Part shown: piece by piece, positions 9,919 to 31,033 of the stretch
Position numbering within the stretch: the first letter of the stretch is position 1
Layout of the letters: each line of letters begins with the position of its first letter
Origin: Woeseiaceae bacterium
Lineage (GTDB): Bacteria; Pseudomonadota; Gammaproteobacteria; Steroidobacterales; Woeseiaceae
Reading direction: 5' to 3'
Assembly: GCA_041579335.1 (NCBI GenBank)
Contig: JBFGFX010000001.1
Coordinates: 150-64,149 of the forward strand
Length of the DNA: 64,000 bases
Made by a program: the position numbers and the translations under genes
The notes under the pieces: model-generated
The model's input: the letters and a program-made list of their open reading frames with translations, nothing else
Databases searched by the model: none
Told to the model about the DNA's origin: nothing

Positions 9919-11622
9919 TTACAGACGAACCGCGTAGTCGGCCGAGGTCAGCATGAGGTAGATGGCGATGCGCAGCCTGGTTTCGGGCTCGTCGATGTCG
10001 GCGATCACGCCGCGCACCGCCTGACGCGTCATCGCATCCAGGGTGCCCGCGGTGAGCAGAATATCCAGGCGGTCGAGCAACGCGCCGACATCGGAGGCCA
10101 GCGCCAGATACTCATCGAGCTCGAGCGTCACGGGCGCGAACGGCTCGGGGGCATCGGTGACGAAACCGCCGAGCACGATGAAGTCGATCAGGTTCGTGAG
10201 CCCGACGATCGAATTGCTCGTCGTGATCTGAAACTCCGGCGCGACCAGGCCCGCATCGTCGATCTCGCCGGCGGGCACGTGCGTAGGCAGGAAGAAATTG
10301 AACACGCTCGGGGCCGACAGCGGGTGCTGCTTGCCGAGCTCCTGCAGGACGAATCCGGTATTGGCGATGAAGCCGTCGTCGCTCGTCGCTCCGAATTGCC
10401 GCAAAATGGACGCGTAACGAACGACCGGCTCGCGGAGCTTGCCGAATGTCCGCGCGGCGTCGGGCGGTGCCGTCGCCTCCGGGTCGAGCAGGACCGCGCG
10501 GATCACGGCCTGCATGTCACCGCGGATTCCGGTCGCGTCGCCGTTGAACGCGCGCGCGACGCGCTCGACGTAGGCAGGCGACGGATTCGAGGTCACGAGA
10601 CGCTGAATCAGCTGCTTGCCGATGAACGGGCCGACGTTCGGATGATCGAAGAGATTGTCGATTGCGGCGTCGATATCCTGCAGACCGGTCTGACCCGCGG
10701 GCACGACCAGTCCCGACAGCAGCCGCTTCTCGCCCGGCTCGTGCTCGCTGTCGAACATCCTCATCTGGGCCAGGAAATTCGGCTCCGGATTGCCGAAGTA
10801 GGCGTTCGGCCCGCCGAACGACAGGCCGGTGAAAATCTTCGCGAACTCGCGAATCTCGTCGTTGGAATAGGTCGGGATCGGCTGGTTCGCGCCGTCTAAG
10901 CGCAGCGTGCCGTCGATATTGAGCTCGAAAAGGCCGATCGAGAAGAGCTGCATGACTTCGCGGGCGTAGTTCTCGTCGGGAAATATGTTGTTCGCCGGGT
11001 CCGCCTTGCGATTGTTGACGTGGCTCAGGTAGATGCCCATCGTCGGATGCAGCGACACGTCGCGCAGCAGATCGCGGAAGTTGCCGAACGCGTTCTCGAG
11101 CAGCATGTCGTAGTAGCCTGCCAGTGCGAACGGGTTGATGATCAGATCGTCCACGTTATCGGAGACGACGAAGATCTCCGAGAGCGCGAAGGCCACGCGT
11201 TGCCGAAGGGCGTCCGGGCTCACGATCGTACGATCCCACCAGGCGAGGCGGCGGAACAGGATCAGCAACTCGATGTCTTGCTCGAACAATGCGAACTCCC
11301 CGGCCTCGCGACGTGTGACGAGGTCCCAGACGATCGGCGAATGCTCGCCGACCGGCAGCGCGAACTGCTGATCCAGCCAGCCGTCCGTGCCCAAGCGGGC
11401 CAGCGATTCGATCTGCTCGTAGGCCAGCCCGAACGTGGCTTGGGCGGCGAATCGCGATGCCGCCTCGAGCTCGGCGCTCGTCGGCGGAGTGGGGGGCTGC
11501 GGCGGCGCCAGGGGAGGGGGCGAGGAGCCTCCTCCGCCGCCTCCACAGGCGACGAGCAGCGTGGCCAAGAATAGGACCGGTAGTGTGTGGCCGCGCGGCA
11601 GTCCTTCGAGCATGCGAAACAT
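9919..11622 (-). CDS. DUF1800 domain lipoprotein
   Basis: Track ORF of 567 aa. It has the lipobox LLVACGGGGGG, and FPDENYAREVMQLFSIGLFEL is typical of DUF1800. It sits upstream of its usual DUF1501 partner. Confidence 0.9.
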   Translation of the reverse strand: MFRMLEGLPRGHTLPVLFLATLLVACGGGGGGSSPPPLAPPQPPTPPTSAELEAASRFAAQATFGLAYEQIESLARLGTDGWLDQQFALPVGEHSPIVWDLVTRREAGEFALFEQDIELLILFRRLAWWDRTIVSPDALRQRVAFALSEIFVVSDNVDDLIINPFALAGYYDMLLENAFGNFRDLLRDVSLHPTMGIYLSHVNNRKADPANNIFPDENYAREVMQLFSIGLFELNIDGTLRLDGANQPIPTYSNDEIREFAKIFTGLSFGGPNAYFGNPEPNFLAQMRMFDSEHEPGEKRLLSGLVVPAGQTGLQDIDAAIDNLFDHPNVGPFIGKQLIQRLVTSNPSPAYVERVARAFNGDATGIRGDMQAVIRAVLLDPEATAPPDAARTFGKLREPVVRYASILRQFGATSDDGFIANTGFVLQELGKQHPLSAPSVFNFFLPTHVPAGEIDDAGLVAPEFQITTSNSIVGLTNLIDFIVLGGFVTDAPEPFAPVTLELDEYLALASDVGALLDRLDILLTAGTLDAMTRQAVRGVIADIDEPETRLRIAIYLMLTSADYAVRL

Positions 11623-11817
11623 GGCGAATCCCTCCCTGAGAGAGCGTTCTCGACGGTCGTGTCGTACGCTTAGTGCGTCGTCGAGTTGAAGGGTTTACGG
11701 CCGCTTGCCATGACTTGCCATATTCGGGCGCGGAGCTCGGCAACCATTCGCGCCCGACACGGTCAACAAAGGAGCGGGCCCGTATCGGCCCGCGCGCTCT
11801 AAGGGGGAGGAGTCGGC

Positions 11818-13179
11818 GTGAGTGCACATTTCTGTCCGAGGGGTCTGCGAAAAGGCGTGGCTCTCGTCGTGCTGATTCTCGGTGGCGCTGCCCATGCGGA
11901 CTCGACCGGCTCGACGCCCGAGCACTGGGCGGAGCGCTCGGCAGCGGTCGAGACCTTCGTCGAGCAGTTCGTCGCGTTCGCGATGTTCGACGGCACGGTA
12001 TTGATCGACATCGGCGGCGAGGTGGCCTTCGAGCGGTCGTTCGGCTATGCGCACTACGAGCACGGCGTCCGGCACGATGCCGATACCCGATTCCGCATCG
12101 CATCGGTGTCCAAAGCGCTGACGGACGCCACGGTCGCTCGGATGATCGACGCTGGAGAGCTCGGACGGGAGATGCCGATCGCGCGCTATCTGCCCGACTT
12201 CCCGTCGGCGGAGCGAATAACGATCCGCCATCTCCTGGATCACAGCTCCGGCGTTCCGCACACGAACGATCAGCCGTGGGGCGACGGCTCGGTGCCGCTG
12301 TCGATCGACGAGATCGTCGCGCGGCTTGCGGAGCTGCCACTCGACTTCGAGCCCGGCAGCGATCGTTCGTACAGCAACGGCGGCTACGCGGTTTTGGCGC
12401 ATGTCATCGGGATCGCGGGCGGAGGGACCTACGCAGAGGTCATGCGACGGCACGTGTTCGAGCCGCTCGGCATGCGCAACACGGATCACATCACGGACGC
12501 ACGCACGCCGATCGCACGGATGGCGACGGGCTACGAGCCGGGTGCTCGCATCGGCGAGCGGCGGCATGCGAGATATTATGCCGTCGAGACCCGTCCGGGC
12601 GGAGGCTCGCTGTATTCGACGGCTCGCGACCTACTGAGATTCGCGCGGGCCACGTTTCGCGACGATTTCATCAAGCCGGAGCAGCGTCGTGACGTGCTCG
12701 GCGCTGACGACGTCGGGTTTCTGTCGCAGGGGCGCTCACCGGGTTTCGTCGCGAAGCTGTACTACGAAGCCGAGCGCGACATCATCGTGATCAGTCTTTC
12801 CAACAACTACGCAGTTCCTGCGGGCTGGGCGGCAAAGCTCGCCGATCTCGCCACGGGCGCCGGCGCGGTCGAATCCTGGCCGCATGTCGAGGCGGCGGAC
12901 CCGACACCGGTTGCGGCCGACGATTCCCGACTAGGCCGCTATCGCCTGTCGCGCGGCGGCGCGGAGGTGGCGCTCGTGCGCGGCATCGCGGGTGGCTTGA
13001 CCATGACGGGTATCGGCAGCGAAGCCGCGACCGCCATGATTCCGTTGGCCGACGGTGCGTTTCTGCAGCCGCAGTATTTCCAACGGTGCGAGCAAGACGC
13101 CGTGACGCGCGTGATCACCTGCCGGATTCTGTCGGGCGACGAGCGCTATACGACGATGCTCACGCCCGTGTCGCAATGA
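11818..13179 (+). CDS. serine hydrolase, class C beta-lactamase/PBP-like
   Basis: Track ORF of 453 aa with a GTG start and a signal peptide. It has SxxK (ASVSKALT) and YxN (YSNGGY). Confidence 0.85.
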   Translation: MSAHFCPRGLRKGVALVVLILGGAAHADSTGSTPEHWAERSAAVETFVEQFVAFAMFDGTVLIDIGGEVAFERSFGYAHYEHGVRHDADTRFRIASVSKALTDATVARMIDAGELGREMPIARYLPDFPSAERITIRHLLDHSSGVPHTNDQPWGDGSVPLSIDEIVARLAELPLDFEPGSDRSYSNGGYAVLAHVIGIAGGGTYAEVMRRHVFEPLGMRNTDHITDARTPIARMATGYEPGARIGERRHARYYAVETRPGGGSLYSTARDLLRFARATFRDDFIKPEQRRDVLGADDVGFLSQGRSPGFVAKLYYEAERDIIVISLSNNYAVPAGWAAKLADLATGAGAVESWPHVEAADPTPVAADDSRLGRYRLSRGGAEVALVRGIAGGLTMTGIGSEAATAMIPLADGAFLQPQYFQRCEQDAVTRVITCRILSGDERYTTMLTPVSQ

Positions 13180-13202
13180 TCACGTTGGGAGATCCGTAGA
13201 AC

Positions 13203-13715
13203 GTGTGGGAGTATCGCGGACAGAAGCGACCCGAATTTGCGGAACGGCCGGGGGACGGTCAAGAATCGGTCTGGGACTACCCGCGGCCCCCGCAGGCGGT
13301 CGGGGACAGCCGCTTGGTGGAGGTGAAGAACGACGGTTCGCTGATTGCGAGCACGTCTGCTGCCATACGCGTCTGTGAGACGGCGTCACCGCCGACGTTC
13401 TACATCCCGCCCAACGACGTGCGCTGGTCGACTCTCGTCTCCGTTAAGGGCCACTCGTTCTGCGAGTGGAAAGGCGCCGCGAGCTACTGGGCGCTCGCGG
13501 CCGATCCGACTGGCGTGCCGGTCGCCTGGAGCTACGACCGTCCGACACCGGGCTTCGCGGTCATCGCGTCCTACGTGTCCTTTTATCCGGGGCGGCTCGA
13601 GTGCTACGTCGACGGAGAGCGCGTCTTGCCGCAGCCCGGCGGCTTCTACGGCGGCTGGGTCACGAGCGAGGTCGTCGGTCCGTTCAAGGGCGAGCCCGGT
13701 ACCGGGCACTGGTGA
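13203..13715 (+). CDS. DUF427 domain protein
   Basis: Track ORF of 170 aa. TFYIPPNDV ... HSFCEWKGAASYW ... FYPGR is the DUF427 pattern. Confidence 0.8.
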   Translation: MWEYRGQKRPEFAERPGDGQESVWDYPRPPQAVGDSRLVEVKNDGSLIASTSAAIRVCETASPPTFYIPPNDVRWSTLVSVKGHSFCEWKGAASYWALAADPTGVPVAWSYDRPTPGFAVIASYVSFYPGRLECYVDGERVLPQPGGFYGGWVTSEVVGPFKGEPGTGHW

Positions 13716-13857
13716 TGCGCCGATGACGTTGGCCGCCGACTCGTCATTGGTGGACTACACTTGTCTTGATTCGATGGAGCGTGCCGCCTCGCCCGCGACC
13801 GGGTATGAGCGCATACGCCCATATCATGGGAACAAAAACGACAAGAAGGGGAAACAC

Positions 13858-14556
13858 ATGCCAGTGCAACTACGAAGAATCCTGATAGCGTGCGGCGCCG
13901 CTTTGATGGGAACGACGTCGGGAGTCGTCCAGGCGGCACCGGTCGAGGCGGTCATCGGTCTCGACGTCGACAACAGCCGCGCGTTCGTCAGCGCGATGGA
14001 CGCCATGTTCGAGTCCGGGGCGATGGACGGTTACGACCTGACGATCTGGGCCAACGCGTTCGACGGCACCAATCCGGCAACGCATACGCTGGTTGCGAGC
14101 TTCGACGGCTACGAGTCGTACGACCGGCTGACCCGGCAGCGTCTCGATCACTCTGGATGGCTGGAGTTCCTACAGGCAATCGAGGGTACCTCCACGGGCA
14201 CCTCGTCACTGATGGCGGTCGAGGCGTTCAAGGCCGGTGAGATCGCCGACAGCCATCGGTCCGGGGTGGCATTCATCATGACCGTGCGCGATCCGGCGAA
14301 GTACGCCGCGGAGTTCTCCAAGCTGACCAGGGCGCAGGGGCATCCCGGCTCGATCCGTCTGATGCAGCTCCGCTACGGCAGCATGGGCGCGACGCACGCG
14401 GTGGTAATGACGGCACCGAGCTCGGCGGCGATGAACGAGTATCTCGATAAGCTCCTTGCGAGCGAGGACTACGCCGATTTCGTCGACGAGGTCGGCGACA
14501 TCCGTACGATCAATACGGTGAACAACTACGCGCTCGTCAAGCGCTGGCGCAAGTAA
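13858..14556 (+). CDS. secreted hypothetical protein
   Basis: Track ORF 13345..14556, start re-set to MPVQLRRILIACGAALMGTTSGVVQAAP (ATG 13858, GAAGGGGAA upstream). The upstream part of the track ORF overlaps the DUF427 gene in another frame. Confidence 0.65.
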   Translation: MPVQLRRILIACGAALMGTTSGVVQAAPVEAVIGLDVDNSRAFVSAMDAMFESGAMDGYDLTIWANAFDGTNPATHTLVASFDGYESYDRLTRQRLDHSGWLEFLQAIEGTSTGTSSLMAVEAFKAGEIADSHRSGVAFIMTVRDPAKYAAEFSKLTRAQGHPGSIRLMQLRYGSMGATHAVVMTAPSSAAMNEYLDKLLASEDYADFVDEVGDIRTINTVNNYALVKRWRK

Positions 14557-24370: not shown

Positions 24371-27300
24371 TCAATTGAACTTGCTGCCGCGCGCAATCCA
24401 TTTGCCGATGTCTTTCGCCGACCTGTCGCGCGGCAGCCCCGGGTGGATGACCTGCGCCGTGCACTTTTCCGCGGCTCTGACGAGGTCGCTGTACGGTCCT
24501 GCATTCGGATCCTTGATGAACGCTTTCTTGTCCTCGTTGTACTCGAAGACGCTGGAGTTGATCTTGATGCACTCGTCGCACGAGGTGCAGTCGTCGGTAT
24601 CGAGCCACGGCGCCATGTAGTCGCCGGCCTCCTGTTGCGCCGGCTCGGTCGGCGCGACCGCCGGCGATGCCGCTGCTGGCGATGCCGCTGCTGGCGCGGG
24701 GACCGCCGCTTCACCGCCGACCATCCGCGCGAGTACCTCCGCCATTCGTTGCGCCACGTCTTGACGCACGCGTGCCTCGATCTCGGGTATAGACGGTGCG
24801 CTCTTGCGCACGCCGCCGAGCGCGCGCAGCATCGTCCAGAAGTCGCGCCGGTCTTCGCAGGATTCGACCATCGATCGATCGACCAGCAGGCGGCTCAAGT
24901 GATTCTTACGGTCGACCGTCCAGATGAACGGAAACCGATCCTCGCGCTCGCTCTCGTCCAGCTCGAGGAACTCGTGAAGCGGCACCATCTTCTCGTTCCA
25001 GCTATCGGGCGGTGCCATGCGGAAGTGCTTGCGGAAGCGCGTCTCTGTGATCGCGAAGTCGGCGAACGTCAGCGGCAGCTCCATGGTCTTCTCGCGCGAC
25101 CCCTGTCGGTAGGTCAGCGTGTACGTCGGCCAGTCCGCGTCCATAGCCGGGTTTCCCGAAAGATCGAAGCACTCGTCGGCCGTCGTGCCCCCGTCCGGGT
25201 CGTACTTGAACAACGGATAGGCGCGCGACTCGACGGCGAGCTTGGCCTGCTGCTCGCTCATGTCGTCGCCGATGCCGTGCTCGGGCTGACAGGACGTGTA
25301 CAGATTGAACAGCGCCGGACGACGCGCGAGCAGGCCTTCGATAAACCCTTCGATCATATGGCTCGCGTAGGCGATCGTGCTCTGCAGCACGTAGGTCGTG
25401 CGGTGCGCCATGCCGATGAGTCCGATCTCCTTGCGGACCTCCTCTTTGCCCTGGATCGCCTTGCCGAACTGCGCCATGTCGGAGACCTGGCCGAAGAACC
25501 CCGAGGTGCACGCCTGGCCGCCGGTATTCGAGTAGACCTGCGTATCGACGACGACGCACTTGATCGGTTTGCCCGACATCATGAGCCGCGAGAGGTTCTG
25601 GAAGCCGATGTCGTACATTGCGCCGTCGCCGCCGACCGCGACCACGGGCGGACACAGCTTGAATTCCTCGTCCGTGAACTGCCGCCAGTCGAAATAGGTG
25701 AAGAACTCGTCGTGCACCGACGGCCGGTATTCGCCGGTGAGCTCGAGCTCGGCTAGGCGTATCGTTTTGAAGCCCTCGGCCATTTTCGCCATGTGGCCCT
25801 CGAACACCCCCATCGCCAGCGACGGCGCGTCCTGGAACAGGTGATTCGCCCACGGGAATGGATACGGGTTGAACGGATACGTGCTGCCCCATACCGACGT
25901 GCAGCCGGTCGCGTTCAGCATCCCCATGCGTGCTCGCCCCTGTCCGGTCGTACCCTCGACGTAGCGCCACTTGAGCTTCTCGAGATCGCCGATAAGGCCG
26001 GTCATGCGTTTCAGCCATCCGGGATCGATCGGCTGCGAACCCTTGTCGTGCTCGATGCGATCCGCGATGCCGGCTAGCGTGACGTCGGCGTCGCCTAAGT
26101 CTTCGACGATGCTCGCAATCTCCGCCGTGTCGCTCAGGTCGATTTCGCCGACGAGCTTTGCCTGCACGTTCTTCTTCAGCCGGTCGACCAGGCCGTCGAG
26201 TTTTTCGACGTGCGCCGCTATGCGCGGCTGCATCAGTGCCTCGACGGTCGCGACGAACAGATGGATGACGGTCTTTTCCGCACACCCGAGGCAGGCGCCG
26301 TCGCCGCTCGCGAACGACAAATAGTTGTCCTTGTCGAGCAGCAGCGTCTCGAGCGCCCCGATCCGCTCCTCGAGATCGTCCACGCGGATGTATTTCTTCG
26401 GCGTATTCGGCAGGTCCAGCCAGAAGTCCCATTTGTGACGGAGGGCATCGATGGACTCGGCGGTCTGAGGCACCGGTTTCAGGGCGTCGTCGTCGCAGAC
26501 GGCGACGCATTCCATGCAGCCCTTGCAGGTGTAAGGATCGACCGTGATCGACAGCAGCCCGCCGGAGCCCTTCTCACGTTTCTCCGGCAGCGTGTAGTAG
26601 GGGCGGGACAGGGCAAATTGAAAGCCGTCGAGCTCTTCTGTGAAGCGGCCGAATTCCTCGGTGAGCGCCGCGCGGCTGTCGGCGTCGCTCGCGGCGATCG
26701 TTTGCTCGATCGCCTCTTCGATCAGGCCGGCGACCGAATCGGTCTCGCTAGCCGCGCTCATTCCCGCGCGGAGATACTGCTCCATCTGGCGCACGGCACG
26801 CGGCAGGTGTTCGACCGAAGCGCCGTTCTTCTTCACCCGCTTGACGACGGTGTCGAGGACCTGGCCGACGTCGTTGACGAGGCCAGGTATTGCGGTGTCG
26901 GGGCAGACGGTATAGCAGTTGCCGCAGGCCGTGCAGTTTTCCGCGTTCCACTCCGGATGTTCGAAACGAATGCCGGTCATGTCGCGATACAGCGAGGAAA
27001 CGGCCGGCATGACCCCCAGCCCGATGAATGGATCGGTGAGGTTGTCGTTGCCCATGCCGCGCGCGTAGAAGTTGCCGGTCTGCTCCCAGAATCGATGGAT
27101 GTCGGACGCGCTCGACCGGCTCTGGGGCAGGCGCTTGACCATGATCGGCACGGGCGGCTCGGGCGGCACTGCCGAGGCGCGGCTTTCTTTCAGCGTGAAC
27201 GGCTTGTCGCGAATCTCCTCCACCTCGTCGAAGCCGCGCCTGACCACGCGCATGTTGTCTTCGACGACCCGCGCGCCCTTGGCGCCGAACTTGTGCTCGA

Positions 27301-29296
27301 GCTGCGCACGGATGGCTTTGAGCAGGGTCGGCTCATCGAGTTTCGCCTGCTCGAGGACCGGAGATGCGGCGAAGAACGCGCCCTGAAACGCGACGCCCTG
27401 CATGCGAAGCTGAAGCTCCGGATCGGTGGCCTCGTCGCGCGCGATGCGGAACGCGTCCAAGAAGAACACGCGGATGTCCTTCTCGACGATAATCTGTTGG
27501 AACGCGACCGGTATCGATTCCCAGACCTCGTCAGCGCTGCCCAGGTCGCTCTGGATGATGAACACGCCGCCGTCTTTCAAACCCGCGATCGCATTCGTGT
27601 GGTTGAACACGTTCGGATCGGGCGATAGCACCACGTCGACGTAATAGTATTCACAGTTGACTTTGATGGGCTCGGATGACGCGGAGAGGTAGAAGGTCGT
27701 CGGCTGGCCTTTTTTCTCCGAGCCATACTTCGGGTTCGCCTTGATGTGAAAGTCCAACAGATCGAACAGCGTCATCGCGAGGTTTTTGCCAGTCGTGATC
27801 GCGCCCCAGCCGCCGACCGAATGGAAGCGCACGGTGATGCTGTCCTCCGGCATCAGGTTCGGATTCTCGCTGCCGCGAATCGCGAGCTCCCGCACGTCGG
27901 GATACGCATCCTCGATCGTCTGCTGGTAGATTTCCTGCTTCGGCGTGAACGGCTTTTTGCGCAGGAAGTCGATCGAGAGGTAGAAGAGCTTCTTGCGCGG
28001 CCCGTCCGGTAGCATGTTCTCGACCGCGCCGATCAGTCCTTCGGGCTGCAGGTCGCGGCTGCCCATGCCGAACGATCCGGAATAGAGGGGCGGCGCGTCC
28101 TTCAAGCTCGAATACGTTTCGAGCTCGGGATGAGGCGTCGCGTTCTTGTCCCGACCGTTCTCCAAGGACTTGGCCACGGTGGCGCGGATCTCGCGCATCA
28201 ACGGCAGGTCGCCGGCCAGCGGCTGGTCCAAGCGTTCGAGCACGGCGACGCCTTTTCTGCCCTTTAGAATCTCTGCCAGTAAGTCGGCGGGGAACGGACG
28301 AAACATCGTGACATCGACGACGCCGACTTTGAGCTTTCTGGACTTGCGCAGGTAGTCGGCGACGACCTCGGCGCTCGGAATCATGCTGCCCTGACCGACG
28401 ATCAAATAGTCGGCATCGTCGGCACGATAGGTGCTGATACGCGCGTAGCGGCGGCCGGTTAGCGCCGCAAATTCCTCGAAGGCGCGGTCGGCAATCTCCT
28501 TGACGTGGTCGTAGAAGAACGGCCGCTGAGCCGCGACGCTCTGCATGTAGGCATCCTGGTTCTCGACGATGCCCGACATGACCGGGTTGTCGACGTCCCA
28601 GAGCTCCGGAATTCGGCGCCGGGTCGGGCCGTAGATGATCCGCTGCGCCGGCGTCGGCGTGTCGATGATGTCGTCCGGTCGACCGAGGAACTCCGCGATG
28701 AGCTCGCGCTCGGGGACCATAAGCGATTCGATCAGGTGCGTCGTCAGGAATCCATCCTGTGCGATCGCCCCCGGCGTCAGGGCCAGCTCGGCGATGCGGT
28801 GAGCGATTATGTTGAGATCGGCGGCGCCCTGCGCGTTCGTCGCGAAAAGCTGGAAGAACCCGGTGTCGTCGATGCAGTGGTAGTCGTCGTGCCCGGCATG
28901 CACGTTCAGCGTCGACTTGGTCATCGCGCGGGCGCCGATGTTGAGGACGTAGGTCAGCCGTTTGCCGGCGGCCGCGTACAGCGACTCGTGCATGTACGCG
29001 ATGCCCTGTCCCGACGAGAAGTTGCTGGCCCGGAGCCCGGTCATCGACATGCCAGCGGTGACCGCGGCCGCGGCGTGCTCGCCCTCGGGCTCGATGAATA
29101 TCAGCGGCCGGCCGGAGACGTTGACGTGGCCTGCGGCTGCGGCTTCCGCCCAGTACTCCCCCATCTGCGTCGACGGCGTGATCGGATAGGCGCCGGCCGC
29201 GTCACTCGCTTCGCGCTCGCAGGCGATGACCGCGGTATTGCCGTCCATCGCGGCGCGCGTGCCCGGGTACTTCACCGGCTTCTCAGACTTCCACAT
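24371..29296 (-). CDS. pyruvate:ferredoxin (flavodoxin) oxidoreductase-type 2-oxoacid oxidoreductase, 1641 aa, with a C-terminal linker plus ferredoxin-like module
   Basis: Track ORF 24371..29530, start re-set to MWKSEKPVKYPG (ATG 29296, GAAGGAAG upstream). Canonical PFOR motifs present are YPITPSTQMGE, CTACGNCYTVCP, CKGCMECVAVCDDD, GDGACLGCAEK, NATGCTSVWG and the TPP motif GGDGAMYDIGFQNL...VVDTQVYSNTGGQ. The C-terminus is an Ala/Pro linker followed by CTSCDEC...EKCT. Confidence 0.9.
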   Translation of the reverse strand: MWKSEKPVKYPGTRAAMDGNTAVIACEREASDAAGAYPITPSTQMGEYWAEAAAAGHVNVSGRPLIFIEPEGEHAAAAVTAGMSMTGLRASNFSSGQGIAYMHESLYAAAGKRLTYVLNIGARAMTKSTLNVHAGHDDYHCIDDTGFFQLFATNAQGAADLNIIAHRIAELALTPGAIAQDGFLTTHLIESLMVPERELIAEFLGRPDDIIDTPTPAQRIIYGPTRRRIPELWDVDNPVMSGIVENQDAYMQSVAAQRPFFYDHVKEIADRAFEEFAALTGRRYARISTYRADDADYLIVGQGSMIPSAEVVADYLRKSRKLKVGVVDVTMFRPFPADLLAEILKGRKGVAVLERLDQPLAGDLPLMREIRATVAKSLENGRDKNATPHPELETYSSLKDAPPLYSGSFGMGSRDLQPEGLIGAVENMLPDGPRKKLFYLSIDFLRKKPFTPKQEIYQQTIEDAYPDVRELAIRGSENPNLMPEDSITVRFHSVGGWGAITTGKNLAMTLFDLLDFHIKANPKYGSEKKGQPTTFYLSASSEPIKVNCEYYYVDVVLSPDPNVFNHTNAIAGLKDGGVFIIQSDLGSADEVWESIPVAFQQIIVEKDIRVFFLDAFRIARDEATDPELQLRMQGVAFQGAFFAASPVLEQAKLDEPTLLKAIRAQLEHKFGAKGARVVEDNMRVVRRGFDEVEEIRDKPFTLKESRASAVPPEPPVPIMVKRLPQSRSSASDIHRFWEQTGNFYARGMGNDNLTDPFIGLGVMPAVSSLYRDMTGIRFEHPEWNAENCTACGNCYTVCPDTAIPGLVNDVGQVLDTVVKRVKKNGASVEHLPRAVRQMEQYLRAGMSAASETDSVAGLIEEAIEQTIAASDADSRAALTEEFGRFTEELDGFQFALSRPYYTLPEKREKGSGGLLSITVDPYTCKGCMECVAVCDDDALKPVPQTAESIDALRHKWDFWLDLPNTPKKYIRVDDLEERIGALETLLLDKDNYLSFASGDGACLGCAEKTVIHLFVATVEALMQPRIAAHVEKLDGLVDRLKKNVQAKLVGEIDLSDTAEIASIVEDLGDADVTLAGIADRIEHDKGSQPIDPGWLKRMTGLIGDLEKLKWRYVEGTTGQGRARMGMLNATGCTSVWGSTYPFNPYPFPWANHLFQDAPSLAMGVFEGHMAKMAEGFKTIRLAELELTGEYRPSVHDEFFTYFDWRQFTDEEFKLCPPVVAVGGDGAMYDIGFQNLSRLMMSGKPIKCVVVDTQVYSNTGGQACTSGFFGQVSDMAQFGKAIQGKEEVRKEIGLIGMAHRTTYVLQSTIAYASHMIEGFIEGLLARRPALFNLYTSCQPEHGIGDDMSEQQAKLAVESRAYPLFKYDPDGGTTADECFDLSGNPAMDADWPTYTLTYRQGSREKTMELPLTFADFAITETRFRKHFRMAPPDSWNEKMVPLHEFLELDESEREDRFPFIWTVDRKNHLSRLLVDRSMVESCEDRRDFWTMLRALGGVRKSAPSIPEIEARVRQDVAQRMAEVLARMVGGEAAVPAPAAASPAAASPAVAPTEPAQQEAGDYMAPWLDTDDCTSCDECIKINSSVFEYNEDKKAFIKDPNAGPYSDLVRAAEKCTAQVIHPGLPRDRSAKDIGKWIARGSKFN
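24663..24692 (-). repeat. perfect 15-bp tandem duplication (ggcgatgccgctgct x2) inside the PFOR Ala/Pro linker
   Basis: Read directly: 24663-24677 equals 24678-24692. It encodes the repeated AASPA units of the linker PAAASPAAASPA. Confidence 0.9.
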
Positions 29297-29307
29297 CGAA
29301 TCTTCCT

Positions 29308-30171
29308 TCAAGTCGCCGCGGCGGGTCGCGCCGAGCGGCGTGAAACCGCGCTCGCCTCGTCGCCTTTGACCACCGTTCCGTCCGGCTCGAGCCACACGAT
29401 CGCCCCGGTTGGGCAGCGCGCGATCGGCGTCTTCGTCGCATGCGGGCGGCGGTAGTCGACGACGGCCAGGTTGTTCTCGATCGTGATCAGCCCCGGTGCG
29501 TCCATCGCGCATTTGCCGCAGGCAGTGCACGCGACCTCGCAGTCCTCGAGGATCTCGTCGCCTTTCTCCAGGTTCTTACAGGCGACCCACAGCCGGTGGC
29601 TCTTCGGATGCAGGCTGAACAGGTCCTTCGGGCAAATTTCGACGCAGTCGTTGCAGGCCGTGCAGAGATCCTCGTCGACGACGGGGAGCGAATACCGATT
29701 CATCGTGATGGCGTCGAAATCACAGACCTCCTCGCAGTCGCCCAGGCCCAAGCATCCCCAGAAACAGCTCTTGCCCCCGCCCGCGACCAGGGCGGCGGAG
29801 CGGCAGCTCCGATGCCCGGTGTAGCGGGCACGATTTCGCGCCACGTTGATGCCGCCAGCGCAGGCCAGCCGGGCGACCTCGCGTTCGCCGGCGCCGACGT
29901 CGACCCCGAGGAATGCGGCAACGGCCTCGCGCTCGGCATCGCCGGACACCGTGCACTGTCCGGGGACGGCCTCGCTCGTGACCAGTGCCTCGGCGAACGC
30001 CCGGCAGCCCGGAAAGCCGCAGGCGCCGCAGTTCGTGCCCGGCAGCATCGCTTCGACGTCGTCGAAGCGCGCATCTTCGAAGACGTAGAGCTTGCGATTA
30101 GCAACGACGAGGCCCGTCGCGAGCAGCAGGGTGAGCGCGCCGAGGGCGCCGATCGCAGTGAGGATAATCAC
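29308..30171 (-). CDS. rnfB: Rnf complex subunit B-like polyferredoxin
   Basis: Track ORF of 287 aa with a GTG start. It has an N-terminal TM helix, the RnfB-type motif GTNCGACGFPGCRAFAEAL, and further clusters CTACNDCVEICP and CTACGKCAMDAP. Confidence 0.85.
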   Translation of the reverse strand: MIILTAIGALGALTLLLATGLVVANRKLYVFEDARFDDVEAMLPGTNCGACGFPGCRAFAEALVTSEAVPGQCTVSGDAEREAVAAFLGVDVGAGEREVARLACAGGINVARNRARYTGHRSCRSAALVAGGGKSCFWGCLGLGDCEEVCDFDAITMNRYSLPVVDEDLCTACNDCVEICPKDLFSLHPKSHRLWVACKNLEKGDEILEDCEVACTACGKCAMDAPGLITIENNLAVVDYRRPHATKTPIARCPTGAIVWLEPDGTVVKGDEASAVSRRSARPAAAT

Positions 30172-30370
30172 TTAGCCGCCCCGGACCGCTCGCGGGGCAG
30201 AGCGGCCTCCGTCGTTCGTCTGTGTCCACCCGAATCGCATCCAGCCTCACCTCGCTCGGCCGACTGTTGCACAAAGCTCATAGCCGATCTGTAGGGGAAT
30301 ACCGAGGCGGGATTGCGAGGTGCGAAATGGAAGAATGAGCGTCCGCAACAAGCGCCTCGGAGCATCGGCA

Positions 30371-31033
30371 ATGCGGTCCCTCCTCATCGTTTGCGCAGCC
30401 GGGCTGCTGCCCCTGGCAGCGGCCGGTGACGCGTCAGAGCGCGTGCCACTGCCCGAGCCCGACCTCGACGGTGACCAGGTGGTCGAGCGGTCGCTCGCGG
30501 AGCGGCGATCCGTTCGTGATTTCGCGAACGCGAGCCTGTCTTTGGCCGACGTGTCGCAAATCCTCTGGGCCGGGCAGGGCATCACGCATCGCCGCGGCTA
30601 CCGGACCGCCCCCTCGGCCGGCGGCCTTTATCCGTTGGAGCTCTACGTCGTTGCGGGGGCCGTGGATGGCCTCACGCCGGGCGTGTATCGCTATCGGCCG
30701 GAGCGGCACGAGCTCATTCGCGTCGCGAGTGGCGATCGCCGCAGACGGCTCGCGGCGGCCGCGCTCGACCAGCGTTGGGTCCGGCGGGCGCCGGCGGTGC
30801 TCGCGATCACGGTGGTCTACGAGCGGACGGAAGCGAAATACGGGGCACGCGGCCGCCGTTACGTGCATGTCGAGGTCGGCCACGCGGCGCAGAACGTGTA
30901 CCTCCAGGCCGGGGCCCGCGGCCTGGGCACCGTCATCGTGGGTGCTTTTCGTGACGCGGAGGTTGCGAGCGCGCTCGAGCTTCCAGCGGACCACCGACCG
31001 CTCGCGCTGATGCCGCTCGGTCGCAGACGCTAG
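30371..31033 (+). CDS. SagB/ThcOx-type nitroreductase-fold dehydrogenase with a signal-peptide-like N-terminus
   Basis: Track ORF 30320..31033; ATG 30371 gives MRSLLIVCAAGLLPLAAAGDA (30320 is also possible). RRSVRDF, APSAGGLYPLELYVV and HVEVGHAAQNVYLQA are typical of the family. Confidence 0.75.
   Translation: MRSLLIVCAAGLLPLAAAGDASERVPLPEPDLDGDQVVERSLAERRSVRDFANASLSLADVSQILWAGQGITHRRGYRTAPSAGGLYPLELYVVAGAVDGLTPGVYRYRPERHELIRVASGDRRRRLAAAALDQRWVRRAPAVLAITVVYERTEAKYGARGRRYVHVEVGHAAQNVYLQAGARGLGTVIVGAFRDAEVASALELPADHRPLALMPLGRRR

Follow-up and report, generated by a model that had tools for sequence, protein, structure and literature searches.

A stretch of 64,000 nucleotides from a Woeseiaceae bacterium (contig JBFGFX010000001.1, positions 150 to 64,149; hereafter the window) encodes an enzyme that resembles the long form of pyruvate:ferredoxin oxidoreductase (PFOR) and carries a small ferredoxin domain at its C-terminus, behind a flexible linker. 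The gene, here called PFOR-Fd, lies inside a cluster encoding the Rnf ion pump. We propose, with a probability of roughly 55%, that the last 115 residues of PFOR-Fd are a built-in, tethered [4Fe-4S] carrier that takes electrons from the distal cluster of the PFOR core to RnfB, not to RnfC, and possibly to a ferredoxin-NADP+ reductase (FNR) encoded at the end of the cluster. With this arrangement low-potential electrons would probably reach the pump from the enzyme with no need for a free carrier.

The C-terminal ferredoxin domain

An initial annotation of the window, made from the sequence without database searches, had proposed that the protein carries a small single-cluster ferredoxin at its C-terminus. 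Family, sequence and fold comparisons all agree with that proposal. The reported C-terminus (...MVGGEAAVPAPAAASPAAASPAVAPTEPAQQEAGDYMAPWLDTDDCTSCDECIKINSSVFEYNEDKKAFIKDPNAGPYSDLVRAAEKCTAQVIHPGLPRDRSAKDIGKWIARGSKFN*) is the exact translation. Searched alone, the last 89 residues matched Fer4_13 with 35.2 bits (E 2e-8), and the full protein scored 28.3 bits, against a cutoff of 24.5. Fer4_15 scored 20.4 bits with the tail alone and 23.3 bits with the full protein, which passes the cutoff of 22.4 only in the latter case. A phmmer search of the Protein Data Bank (PDB) paired the tail with D. africanus ferredoxin I (1dax, E 5e-5), matching all four ligand cysteines, and also with D. gigas ferredoxin II. 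The ligands are C1570 (codon 24587-24589), C1573 (24578-24580), C1576 (24569-24571) and C1612 (24461-24463).

Two AlphaFold2 (AF2) models were made, one of the tail alone and one of residues 1091-1641. In the longer model the isolated thiamine pyrophosphate (TPP) domain was poorly folded, with a predicted local distance difference test score (pLDDT) below 50, and only the parts covering the C-terminal extension, linker and tail were used. The tail model had a mean pLDDT of 75 and a predicted template modelling (TM) score of 0.67. Its top Foldseek matches were 1fxd and 1fxr, with a probability of 0.99 and a root-mean-square deviation (rmsd) of 2.2-2.5 Å over 51-54 residues. The 12 best matches were all small ferredoxins, ten of them single-cluster proteins; ranks 9 and 12 were entries for H. 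thermophilus Fd1. The longer model again matched 1fxd (probability 1.0), and across both models the rmsd was 2.2-2.9 Å. Within the ferredoxin domain the pLDDT was about 75-90.

Conservation was measured by aligning 181 distinct homologous C-termini with MAFFT, and columns of the catalytic core were taken from 54 homologues. The initial annotation had rested the ferredoxin on four cysteines, and all four are invariant (181/181). The motifs APW, GPY, VIHPG and a C-terminal K(Y/F)N are also invariant. A threonine follows the fourth cysteine in 177/181 sequences, in place of the usual proline. Compared with the single-cluster ferredoxins 1fxr/1dax, 1fxd and P. furiosus Fd, the tail has an aligned CxxCxxC...C pattern, ∼31–33% identity and the same fold, with TM scores (target) of 0.61-0.67. 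It differs from them in being covalently tethered to a reductase, in this threonine, and in an added APW lead-in and basic C-terminal helix. The CxxCxxC triad is complete, which makes a [4Fe-4S] cluster the likeliest occupant of the tail.

The basic helix that closes the protein has the family consensus LPRDRSxKDIDKWIxRGEKYN. In the tail model it comprises residues 75-82, with a pLDDT of 81-88. It may be a docking element.

The linker

The initial annotation had likened the stretch in front of the ferredoxin to the swinging-arm linkers of 2-oxoacid dehydrogenase E2 proteins, and its composition, variability and predicted disorder bear out the comparison. The linker consists of 33% alanine, 15% glycine, 10% proline, 7% serine and 7% glutamate. 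Among the 181 C-termini it is 21 to 51 residues long (median 32), and it is unalignable and filled with gaps, with a mean column identity of 0.37 compared with 0.80 for the tail. Over residues 1532-1560 the pLDDT is 34-42, below the value of 50, compared with 78-90 for the tail in the longer model, and the segment is predicted to be disordered. The annotation also stated that the protein ends with this Ala/Pro-rich linker. The linker is indeed present, but it is not the end of the protein, since the ferredoxin module comes after it.

In E2 proteins an Ala/Pro-rich linker of variable length joins a small carrier domain to a large 2-oxoacid catalytic assembly. The PFOR-Fd linker shares the disorder, low complexity and variable length of such arms, but bears an Fe-S domain instead of a lipoyl domain and is richer in glycine. 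Any mobility of the ferredoxin domain is suggested by analogy.

Within the linker Tandem Repeats Finder confirmed the perfect 15-bp tandem duplication reported by the initial annotation (period 15, 2.3 copies, 100% match), the two full copies of which occupy 24663-24692. Two copies are also present in a 99.76%-identical strain, the sole close strain available, and the duplication is missing from relatives at ≤85% identity. It is therefore private to the lineage, and it shows that the linker evolves by slippage (or duplication).

The contrast between linker and tail bears on a different arrangement, in which the ferredoxin domain is docked permanently on the core or on the partner protomer, next to the distal cluster. 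The protein would then have a longer internal wire with a new exit site, and the linker would be a loose connector around the extension. We felt that this static fourth cluster was rather unlikely. A fixed domain rarely tolerates a connector of 21-51 residues that is low in complexity and free of sequence constraint, and the two tandem tails of the paralogues described below, each on its own linker, do not sit easily with one fixed site. On the other hand, the column identity of 0.80 for tail and terminal helix, with the invariant motifs listed above, is typical of a fixed interface, and the conserved C-terminal extension could serve as its platform.

Catalytic core and C-terminal extension

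The PFOR-Fd open reading frame (ORF) occupies 29296..24371 on the minus strand and encodes 1641 residues plus the stop. Its ATG is at 29296, within the minus-strand translation of 29530..24371. An independent gene call on the 99.76%-identical public contig GCA_041616835.1 has the same length of 1641 residues. Pfam identified POR_N, PFOR_II, POR, two Fer4 domains, TPP_enzyme_C and the C-terminal Fer4_13. The domains of 2-oxoacid:ferredoxin oxidoreductases (OFORs) are in the canonical order and all above cutoff: POR_N (domain I) 151.8 bits, PFOR_II (II) 50.7 bits, POR (III) 104.7 bits and TPP_enzyme_C (VI) 29.1 bits. The best solved relatives are the PFORs of M. thermoacetica (6cin, E 3e-87) and D. 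africanus (1b0p, E 5e-73), and the YPITPST, E-H-A-A and GAR motifs align to the M. thermoacetica enzyme. Both single-chain enzymes share with PFOR-Fd the domain order I, II, III, V, VI, the TPP motif and three [4Fe-4S] sites.

The TIGR02176 equivalog (NifJ type) gave 409 bits, below its cutoff of 911. Judged by this score, PFOR-Fd is a divergent sister family of the NifJ-type PFORs. Relatives carry the NCBI label '2-oxoacid:acceptor oxidoreductase family protein', and 'pyruvate-ferredoxin/flavodoxin oxidoreductase' is also found in databases. Pyruvate or another 2-oxoacid is the putative substrate.

The Mg-TPP GDG...N motif GGDGAMYDIGFQN is invariant in the 54 aligned homologues, and 12 cluster cysteines of the core, including C1002/1005 and C1132, are conserved in them. 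C1002/1005/1132/1336 were assigned as ligands of the proximal cluster, C1336 as the fourth ligand by position only. Because the Mg-TPP motif and the ligand cysteines of three clusters are conserved, the core looks catalytically competent and cofactor-complete.

Compared with 6cin and 1b0p, PFOR-Fd alone has ∼190 additional residues separating its first domain-V motif from the proximal-cluster region (query 804-1114 versus 6cin 702-819) and a C-terminal part of ∼270 residues that includes the fourth cluster domain. Two large insertions relative to solved PFORs lie in 25960-26935 (residues ∼788–1113), one of ∼125 residues between the domain-V motifs and one of ∼125 residues between C1005 and C1132. 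The C-terminal part lies beyond the TPP domain, and the displayed 6cin alignment stops near residue 1370.

This C-terminal part begins with a conserved extension, which AF2 modelled with a pLDDT of mostly 80-96 and which has a mean column identity of 0.70. Neither phmmer against the PDB nor Foldseek found a sequence or fold relative of the extension. Residues 1372-1641 matched only ferredoxins in the PDB by sequence, and the model of residues 1091-1641 had credible fold matches only to ferredoxins. A relationship of the extension to domain VII of D. africanus, or to any other solved structure, was considered and rejected, none being found by sequence or fold. Degenerate paralogues keep the extension too, so that extension, linker and tail act as a single module in evolution.

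A protective or regulatory lid against oxygen, with a role like that of domain VII of D. africanus PFOR, would have the extension and tail shield the distal clusters. Such a role would suit the hosts, which are mostly aerobes or facultative sediment bacteria. It was nevertheless judged very unlikely, as it has no need for a ferredoxin fold or four invariant ligand cysteines, and PFOR-Fd has no sequence or fold similarity to the D. africanus enzyme beyond the TPP domain.

Distribution of the fusion and its gene cluster

The gene order in the window is rnfB, PFOR-Fd, rnfC, rnfD, rnfG, rnfE, rnfA and plant-type FNR, all on the minus strand (30171-19073), termed a nine-gene, 11-kb unit. All six Rnf subunits (A, B, C, D, E, G) are encoded together, in the order B-[PFOR]-C-D-G-E-A. 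The genes are packed tightly, with gaps of 11 nt and 1 nt and an overlap of the ATGA type. The rnfB stop is 11 nt before the PFOR-Fd start. The PFOR-Fd stop (TGA, 24373-24371) is separated by one nucleotide (24370) from the rnfC ATG (24369-24367), the spacing given by the initial annotation, and TIGR01945 (486 bits) supports the identity of rnfC.

The protein database holds thousands of PFOR-Fd relatives, and the figures given here are from the best 120. These are 72-100% identical to PFOR-Fd and, all but one partial sequence, 1624-1674 residues long; the tail is kept in 119/120. A genome scan, using one genome per species, found 197 relatives, of which 80 loci were kept. The fused ORF is continuous in all 80 loci and in the same 119/120 database relatives, the exception being the partial one. 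The initial annotation had raised an assembly artefact as a possible cause of the fusion, and the conservation of the tail in relatives excludes it.

An internal start could in principle yield the tail as a separate product. In the window the in-frame ATG of Met1561 (24614-24616), just before the ferredoxin domain, is preceded at a distance of 11 nt by AGGAGG (24628-24633, minus strand). A motif resembling a Shine-Dalgarno sequence was found at this place in 10/68 loci, compared with a background of 10%, and 13/81 loci have no start-capable codon there. The AGGAGG is not conserved in relatives and is therefore probably coincidental, and separate translation of the tail from Met1561 was rejected. 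With the continuous ORF in relatives, an explanation by mis-assembly, annotation error or a separate product is effectively refuted.

The 80 loci include Woeseiaceae (closest, 77% identity), Halieaceae, Chromatiales and Lysobacterales. The further groups are Myxococcota, Planctomycetota (Pirellulaceae, Phycisphaerae), Acidobacteriota (Bryobacterales), Verrucomicrobiota (Opitutales), Bacteroidota (including the cultured Fulvivirga sp. M361), Calditrichota, KSB1, Gemmatimonadota and Bdellovibrionota.

Synteny was examined by tblastn with the proteins of the window, and counts cover only the loci that could be assessed. The order of the cluster is kept in nearly all 80 genomes, from more than ten phyla. 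The order rnfB-PFOR-rnfCDGEA-FNR was found in Woeseiaceae, Halieaceae, Myxococcota, Planctomycetota, Acidobacteriota, Verrucomicrobiota, Bacteroidota, Calditrichota, KSB1 and Gemmatimonadota. rnfC directly follows the tail in 69/70 loci, so the fusion tracks rnf linkage, a check that the initial annotation had suggested. FNR closes the cluster in 55/57 loci, the exceptions being L006, where the sequence is masked with Ns, and L078. rnfB is upstream in 54/57 loci; two Bacteroidota loci have rnfB after FNR, and L006 is masked. L078 (1-11933) is the only one of the 70 loci in which a tail-bearing PFOR is not followed by rnf genes, and is either a real exception or a mis-assembly of a metagenome-assembled genome.

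The last 409 residues of PFOR-Fd are 62-77% identical across phyla, from which we infer horizontal spread of the whole cluster. The gene order kept across more than ten phyla likewise points to a horizontally mobile energy module.

Degenerate paralogues

A profile of the tail, run against 1.84 billion representative proteins, matched 979 clusters (50% identity) at E < 1e-10. Among the 150 matches listed, most end at the C-terminus or a few residues from it, and the tail is internal in P0230, P0248 and P0266. P0230 (680 residues) has the module inside a NapH-like polyferredoxin membrane protein, and P0137 (524 residues) has it at the C-terminus, after an unrelated N-terminal region. Many of the proteins with the tail are related to the long PFOR at 25-35% identity, over its full length or part of it. 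These are degenerate paralogues, which have lost the GDG motif and the domain-V cysteines and carry one or two tandem tails, each with its own linker.

The genomic contexts of P0121, P0122, P0135, P0141, P0207, P0213 and P0202 (L082-L091) were examined. In L082/083, L086, L088 and L090 the paralogue comes after a two-subunit OFOR, with an alpha subunit of ∼630 residues and a beta subunit of ∼318 residues containing PFO_beta_C. L084/085 has only a partial ORF like a beta subunit upstream, and L087 and L091 have too little upstream sequence for an OFOR call. The paralogues adjoin rnf genes in L084, L086 and L087, and L088 has no rnf genes nearby. Judging from these neighbourhoods, the tail module accompanies OFOR enzymes wherever upstream genes are visible, and Rnf often. 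The degenerate paralogues seem to form a family of scaffold subunits not yet annotated. PFOR-Fd of the window is the simplest version of the module, with everything on one polypeptide.

Two of these loci have unusual gene contents. In L086 the order is OFOR alpha, OFOR beta, the two-tail scaffold P0122, rnfB, a tail-less PFOR-like gene, rnfC, rnfD and rnfG. The tail-less gene (9986-14497, 1503 residues), between rnfB and rnfC, keeps both domain-V cysteine motifs and has lost GDG. L087 (1-8216, GCA_015657855.1) contains rnfB, the degenerate two-tail P0121, rnfD, rnfG, rnfE and rnfA, with no rnfC between P0121 and rnfD.

A PFOR-like gene always lies between rnfB and rnfC or rnfD, catalytically dead versions included. 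This position would also suit a role in recruitment, in which the tail, chiefly its basic helix, tethers the soluble PFOR to RnfB or RnfC as a supercomplex and its cluster is one hop in a fixed chain. The conserved basic helix and a gene spacing like that of translational coupling would fit as well, whereas the tail-bearing paralogue of L088, without rnf genes nearby, does not. We consider recruitment an unlikely sole explanation, and it is compatible with a tethered carrier.

Proposed electron path

The core, with TPP and three canonical [4Fe-4S] clusters, would oxidise pyruvate or a related 2-oxoacid with CoA. Electrons would travel by way of the proximal, medial and distal clusters and so reach the tethered ferredoxin. 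The ferredoxin would then swing over to the cytoplasmic ferredoxin-accepting domain of RnfB, the product of the gene immediately upstream. The co-encoded RnfCDGEA would reduce NAD+ and pump Na+ or H+, and FNR at the end of the operon would provide a branch to NADP+. Flow in the reverse direction may also occur, with ferredoxin reduction driven by Rnf or NADPH leading to pyruvate synthesis.

The initial annotation had the carrier deliver to RnfB/RnfC on the strength of the adjacent rnfC, and had missed rnfB. The cytoplasmic C-terminal domain of RnfB is the ferredoxin acceptor of Rnf, and RnfC is the NAD(H) module (PMC12174285). RnfB is therefore the likely acceptor, as it takes ferredoxin electrons and its gene is directly upstream of PFOR-Fd. 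RnfC is the NAD(H) end, so direct delivery to it would bypass ion translocation, and this half of the earlier proposal was dropped. The adjacency of rnfC is a matter of gene order only. FNR is the second candidate partner of the tail.

Several observations weigh against a mobile tethered carrier for pyruvate electrons. The tail is conserved beyond the need of a freely diffusing carrier, and a fixed docking site would fit equally well. The threonine in place of the usual proline after the fourth cysteine would also be compatible with a [3Fe-4S] or otherwise atypical cluster. RnfB, domain V of PFOR and FNR are all net acidic, like the ferredoxin core; charge complementarity thus gives no clear partner, and would need to be supplied by the basic terminal helix. 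The paralogue in L088, with no rnf genes in its neighbourhood, shows the tail to follow OFORs more strictly than it follows Rnf. Finally, with a TIGR02176 score of 409 against a cutoff of 911, pyruvate as the substrate is putative.

A more far-reaching version is offered tentatively, as a possibility that we think less probable than the tethered carrier itself. The PFOR-like protein may serve a distinct Rnf subtype as its dedicated, physically attached input module. The two would together make up an ion pump in the membrane, acting as a pyruvate:NAD+ oxidoreductase, in which the tethered Fer4_13 domain is the only carrier, with no diffusible ferredoxin, and FNR is a branch to NADP+. Horizontal transfer would have spread the unit to aerobic and facultative bacteria of sediments, in more than ten phyla, and the degenerate one- and two-tail paralogues would be scaffolds doing likewise for two-subunit OFORs. 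If true, such a subtype would conserve the ∼180 mV wasted by the ordinary pyruvate dehydrogenase complex.

Comparison with known systems

PFOR and Rnf are usually pictured as linked by a soluble ferredoxin pool, mostly in anaerobes. PFOR-Fd places the carrier covalently on the dehydrogenase and the dehydrogenase gene inside the pump operon. The arrangement is kept in phyla that dominate oxic and suboxic marine sediments (Woeseiaceae, Pirellulaceae, Halieaceae, Myxococcota). Should electrons be channelled by the tether, this would account for the way such organisms keep low-potential electrons from O2 and would amount to an energy-conserving alternative to the pyruvate dehydrogenase complex. 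It would also offer a natural template for synthetic PFOR-ferredoxin fusions.

The pyruvate:NADP+ oxidoreductase (PNO) of Euglena and Cryptosporidium is a PFOR fused C-terminally to a flavoprotein like cytochrome P450 reductase. PNO thus has a redox partner at the C-terminus of PFOR, as here, and with the FNR of the operon the overall reaction would likewise run from pyruvate to NADP+. PFOR-Fd is not a PNO, however, as Pfam found no flavoprotein domain in its ORF; the fused module is a ferredoxin, and FNR is a separate gene. In MCCYP51FX of Methylococcus capsulatus a P450 carries, after an alanine-rich linker, a C-terminal single-cluster ferredoxin. That ferredoxin feeds electrons to its enzyme, which is the opposite direction; the P450 belongs to an unrelated enzyme class, and its setting does not involve Rnf. 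Enzyme-ferredoxin fusions, and fusions of PFOR with a partner such as PNO, are therefore already known kinds. What goes beyond them is a multi-gene module strictly conserved across phyla, together with degenerate scaffolds bearing one or two tethered ferredoxins, which expose a large set of unannotated proteins derived from PFOR.

The initial annotation knew of no characterised fusion of this type, and neither a PFOR-ferredoxin fusion nor a PFOR gene inside an rnf operon was described in the literature searched, which comprised open-access papers only, so that absence is not proof. Flexible ferredoxin domains of RnfB and NqrF move between the donor and acceptor sites of Rnf and Nqr (PMC12174285). 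The mobile domain is part of the pump in those cases, whereas in PFOR-Fd a presumably mobile domain is part of the electron-donating dehydrogenase. According to a 2025 survey, the OFORs are built on one shared plan and have one to three clusters, and the unusual extension among them is domain VII of the D. africanus enzyme (PMC12337175). PFOR-Fd would add a four-cluster architecture to this superfamily.

Features of the locus

The features of PFOR-Fd and its cluster are listed in Table 1.

Table 1. Position of PFOR-Fd, its parts and the neighbouring genes in the window.
Feature	Residues or length	Coordinates	Strand	Basis
PFOR-Fd, long-form PFOR-like 2-oxoacid:acceptor oxidoreductase with C-terminal tethered ferredoxin	1641 aa	24371..29296	-	Pfam, PDB matches
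Domain V, two [4Fe-4S] motifs	C788/791/794/798 and C924/927/930/934	26495..26935	-	Cys positions, near-invariant in 54 homologues; 6cin alignment
TPP-binding domain VI core with invariant Mg-TPP motif	motif at 1221-1233	25187..25648	-	TPP_enzyme_C; NF008819 PorB match to residues 1218-1366
Conserved C-terminal extension, beta-rich subdomain then two long helices	∼1380–1526	24719..25159	-	AF2, conservation
Flexible linker (GGEAAVPAPAAASPAAASPAVAPTEPAQQEA)	1527-1557 (31 aa)	24626..24718	-	Alignment, composition, AF2
Perfect 15-bp tandem duplication in linker, encoding AAASP-AAASP		24663..24696	.	Tandem Repeats Finder
Single-cluster ferredoxin domain, net charge -6	1558-1620 (63 aa)	24437..24625	-	Fer4_13, 1dax alignment, AF2/Foldseek
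Conserved basic C-terminal helix and terminus (LPRDRSAKDIGKWIARGSKFN)	1621-1641	24374..24436	-	Conservation, AF2, charge +4
rnfB, N-terminal membrane helix, FeS domain (NCGACGFPGC), Fer4 motifs	287 aa	29308..30171	-	PF04060 54.9 bits and Fer4 families; same gene call in L081
rnfC, NAD(H)/FMN module	445 aa	23032..24369	-	TIGR01945 486 bits
rnfD	340 aa	22010..23032	-	PF03116 350.7 bits
rnfG	224 aa	21339..22013	-	FMN_bind 53.8 bits
rnfE	210 aa	20720..21352	-	Rnf-Nqr 230.7 bits
rnfA	193 aa	20142..20723	-	Rnf-Nqr 192.5 bits
Plant-type FNR, C-terminal Tyr, last gene	286 aa	19073..19933	-	FAD_binding_6, NAD_binding_1; chloroplast/cyanobacterial FNRs best in PDB, E 6e-38

The order C-D-G-E-A-FNR mimics NqrA-F, and a hybrid of Nqr type without rnfB was considered. 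It was rejected, as a scan for cysteine motifs and the ORF list place rnfB directly upstream of PFOR-Fd. A promoter and terminator scan of the operon gave match counts at chance level. A nitroreductase-family gene (30320-31033, plus strand, Pfam 121 bits) diverges from the rnfB end of the cluster, and a convergent ORF flanks the cluster on the other side.

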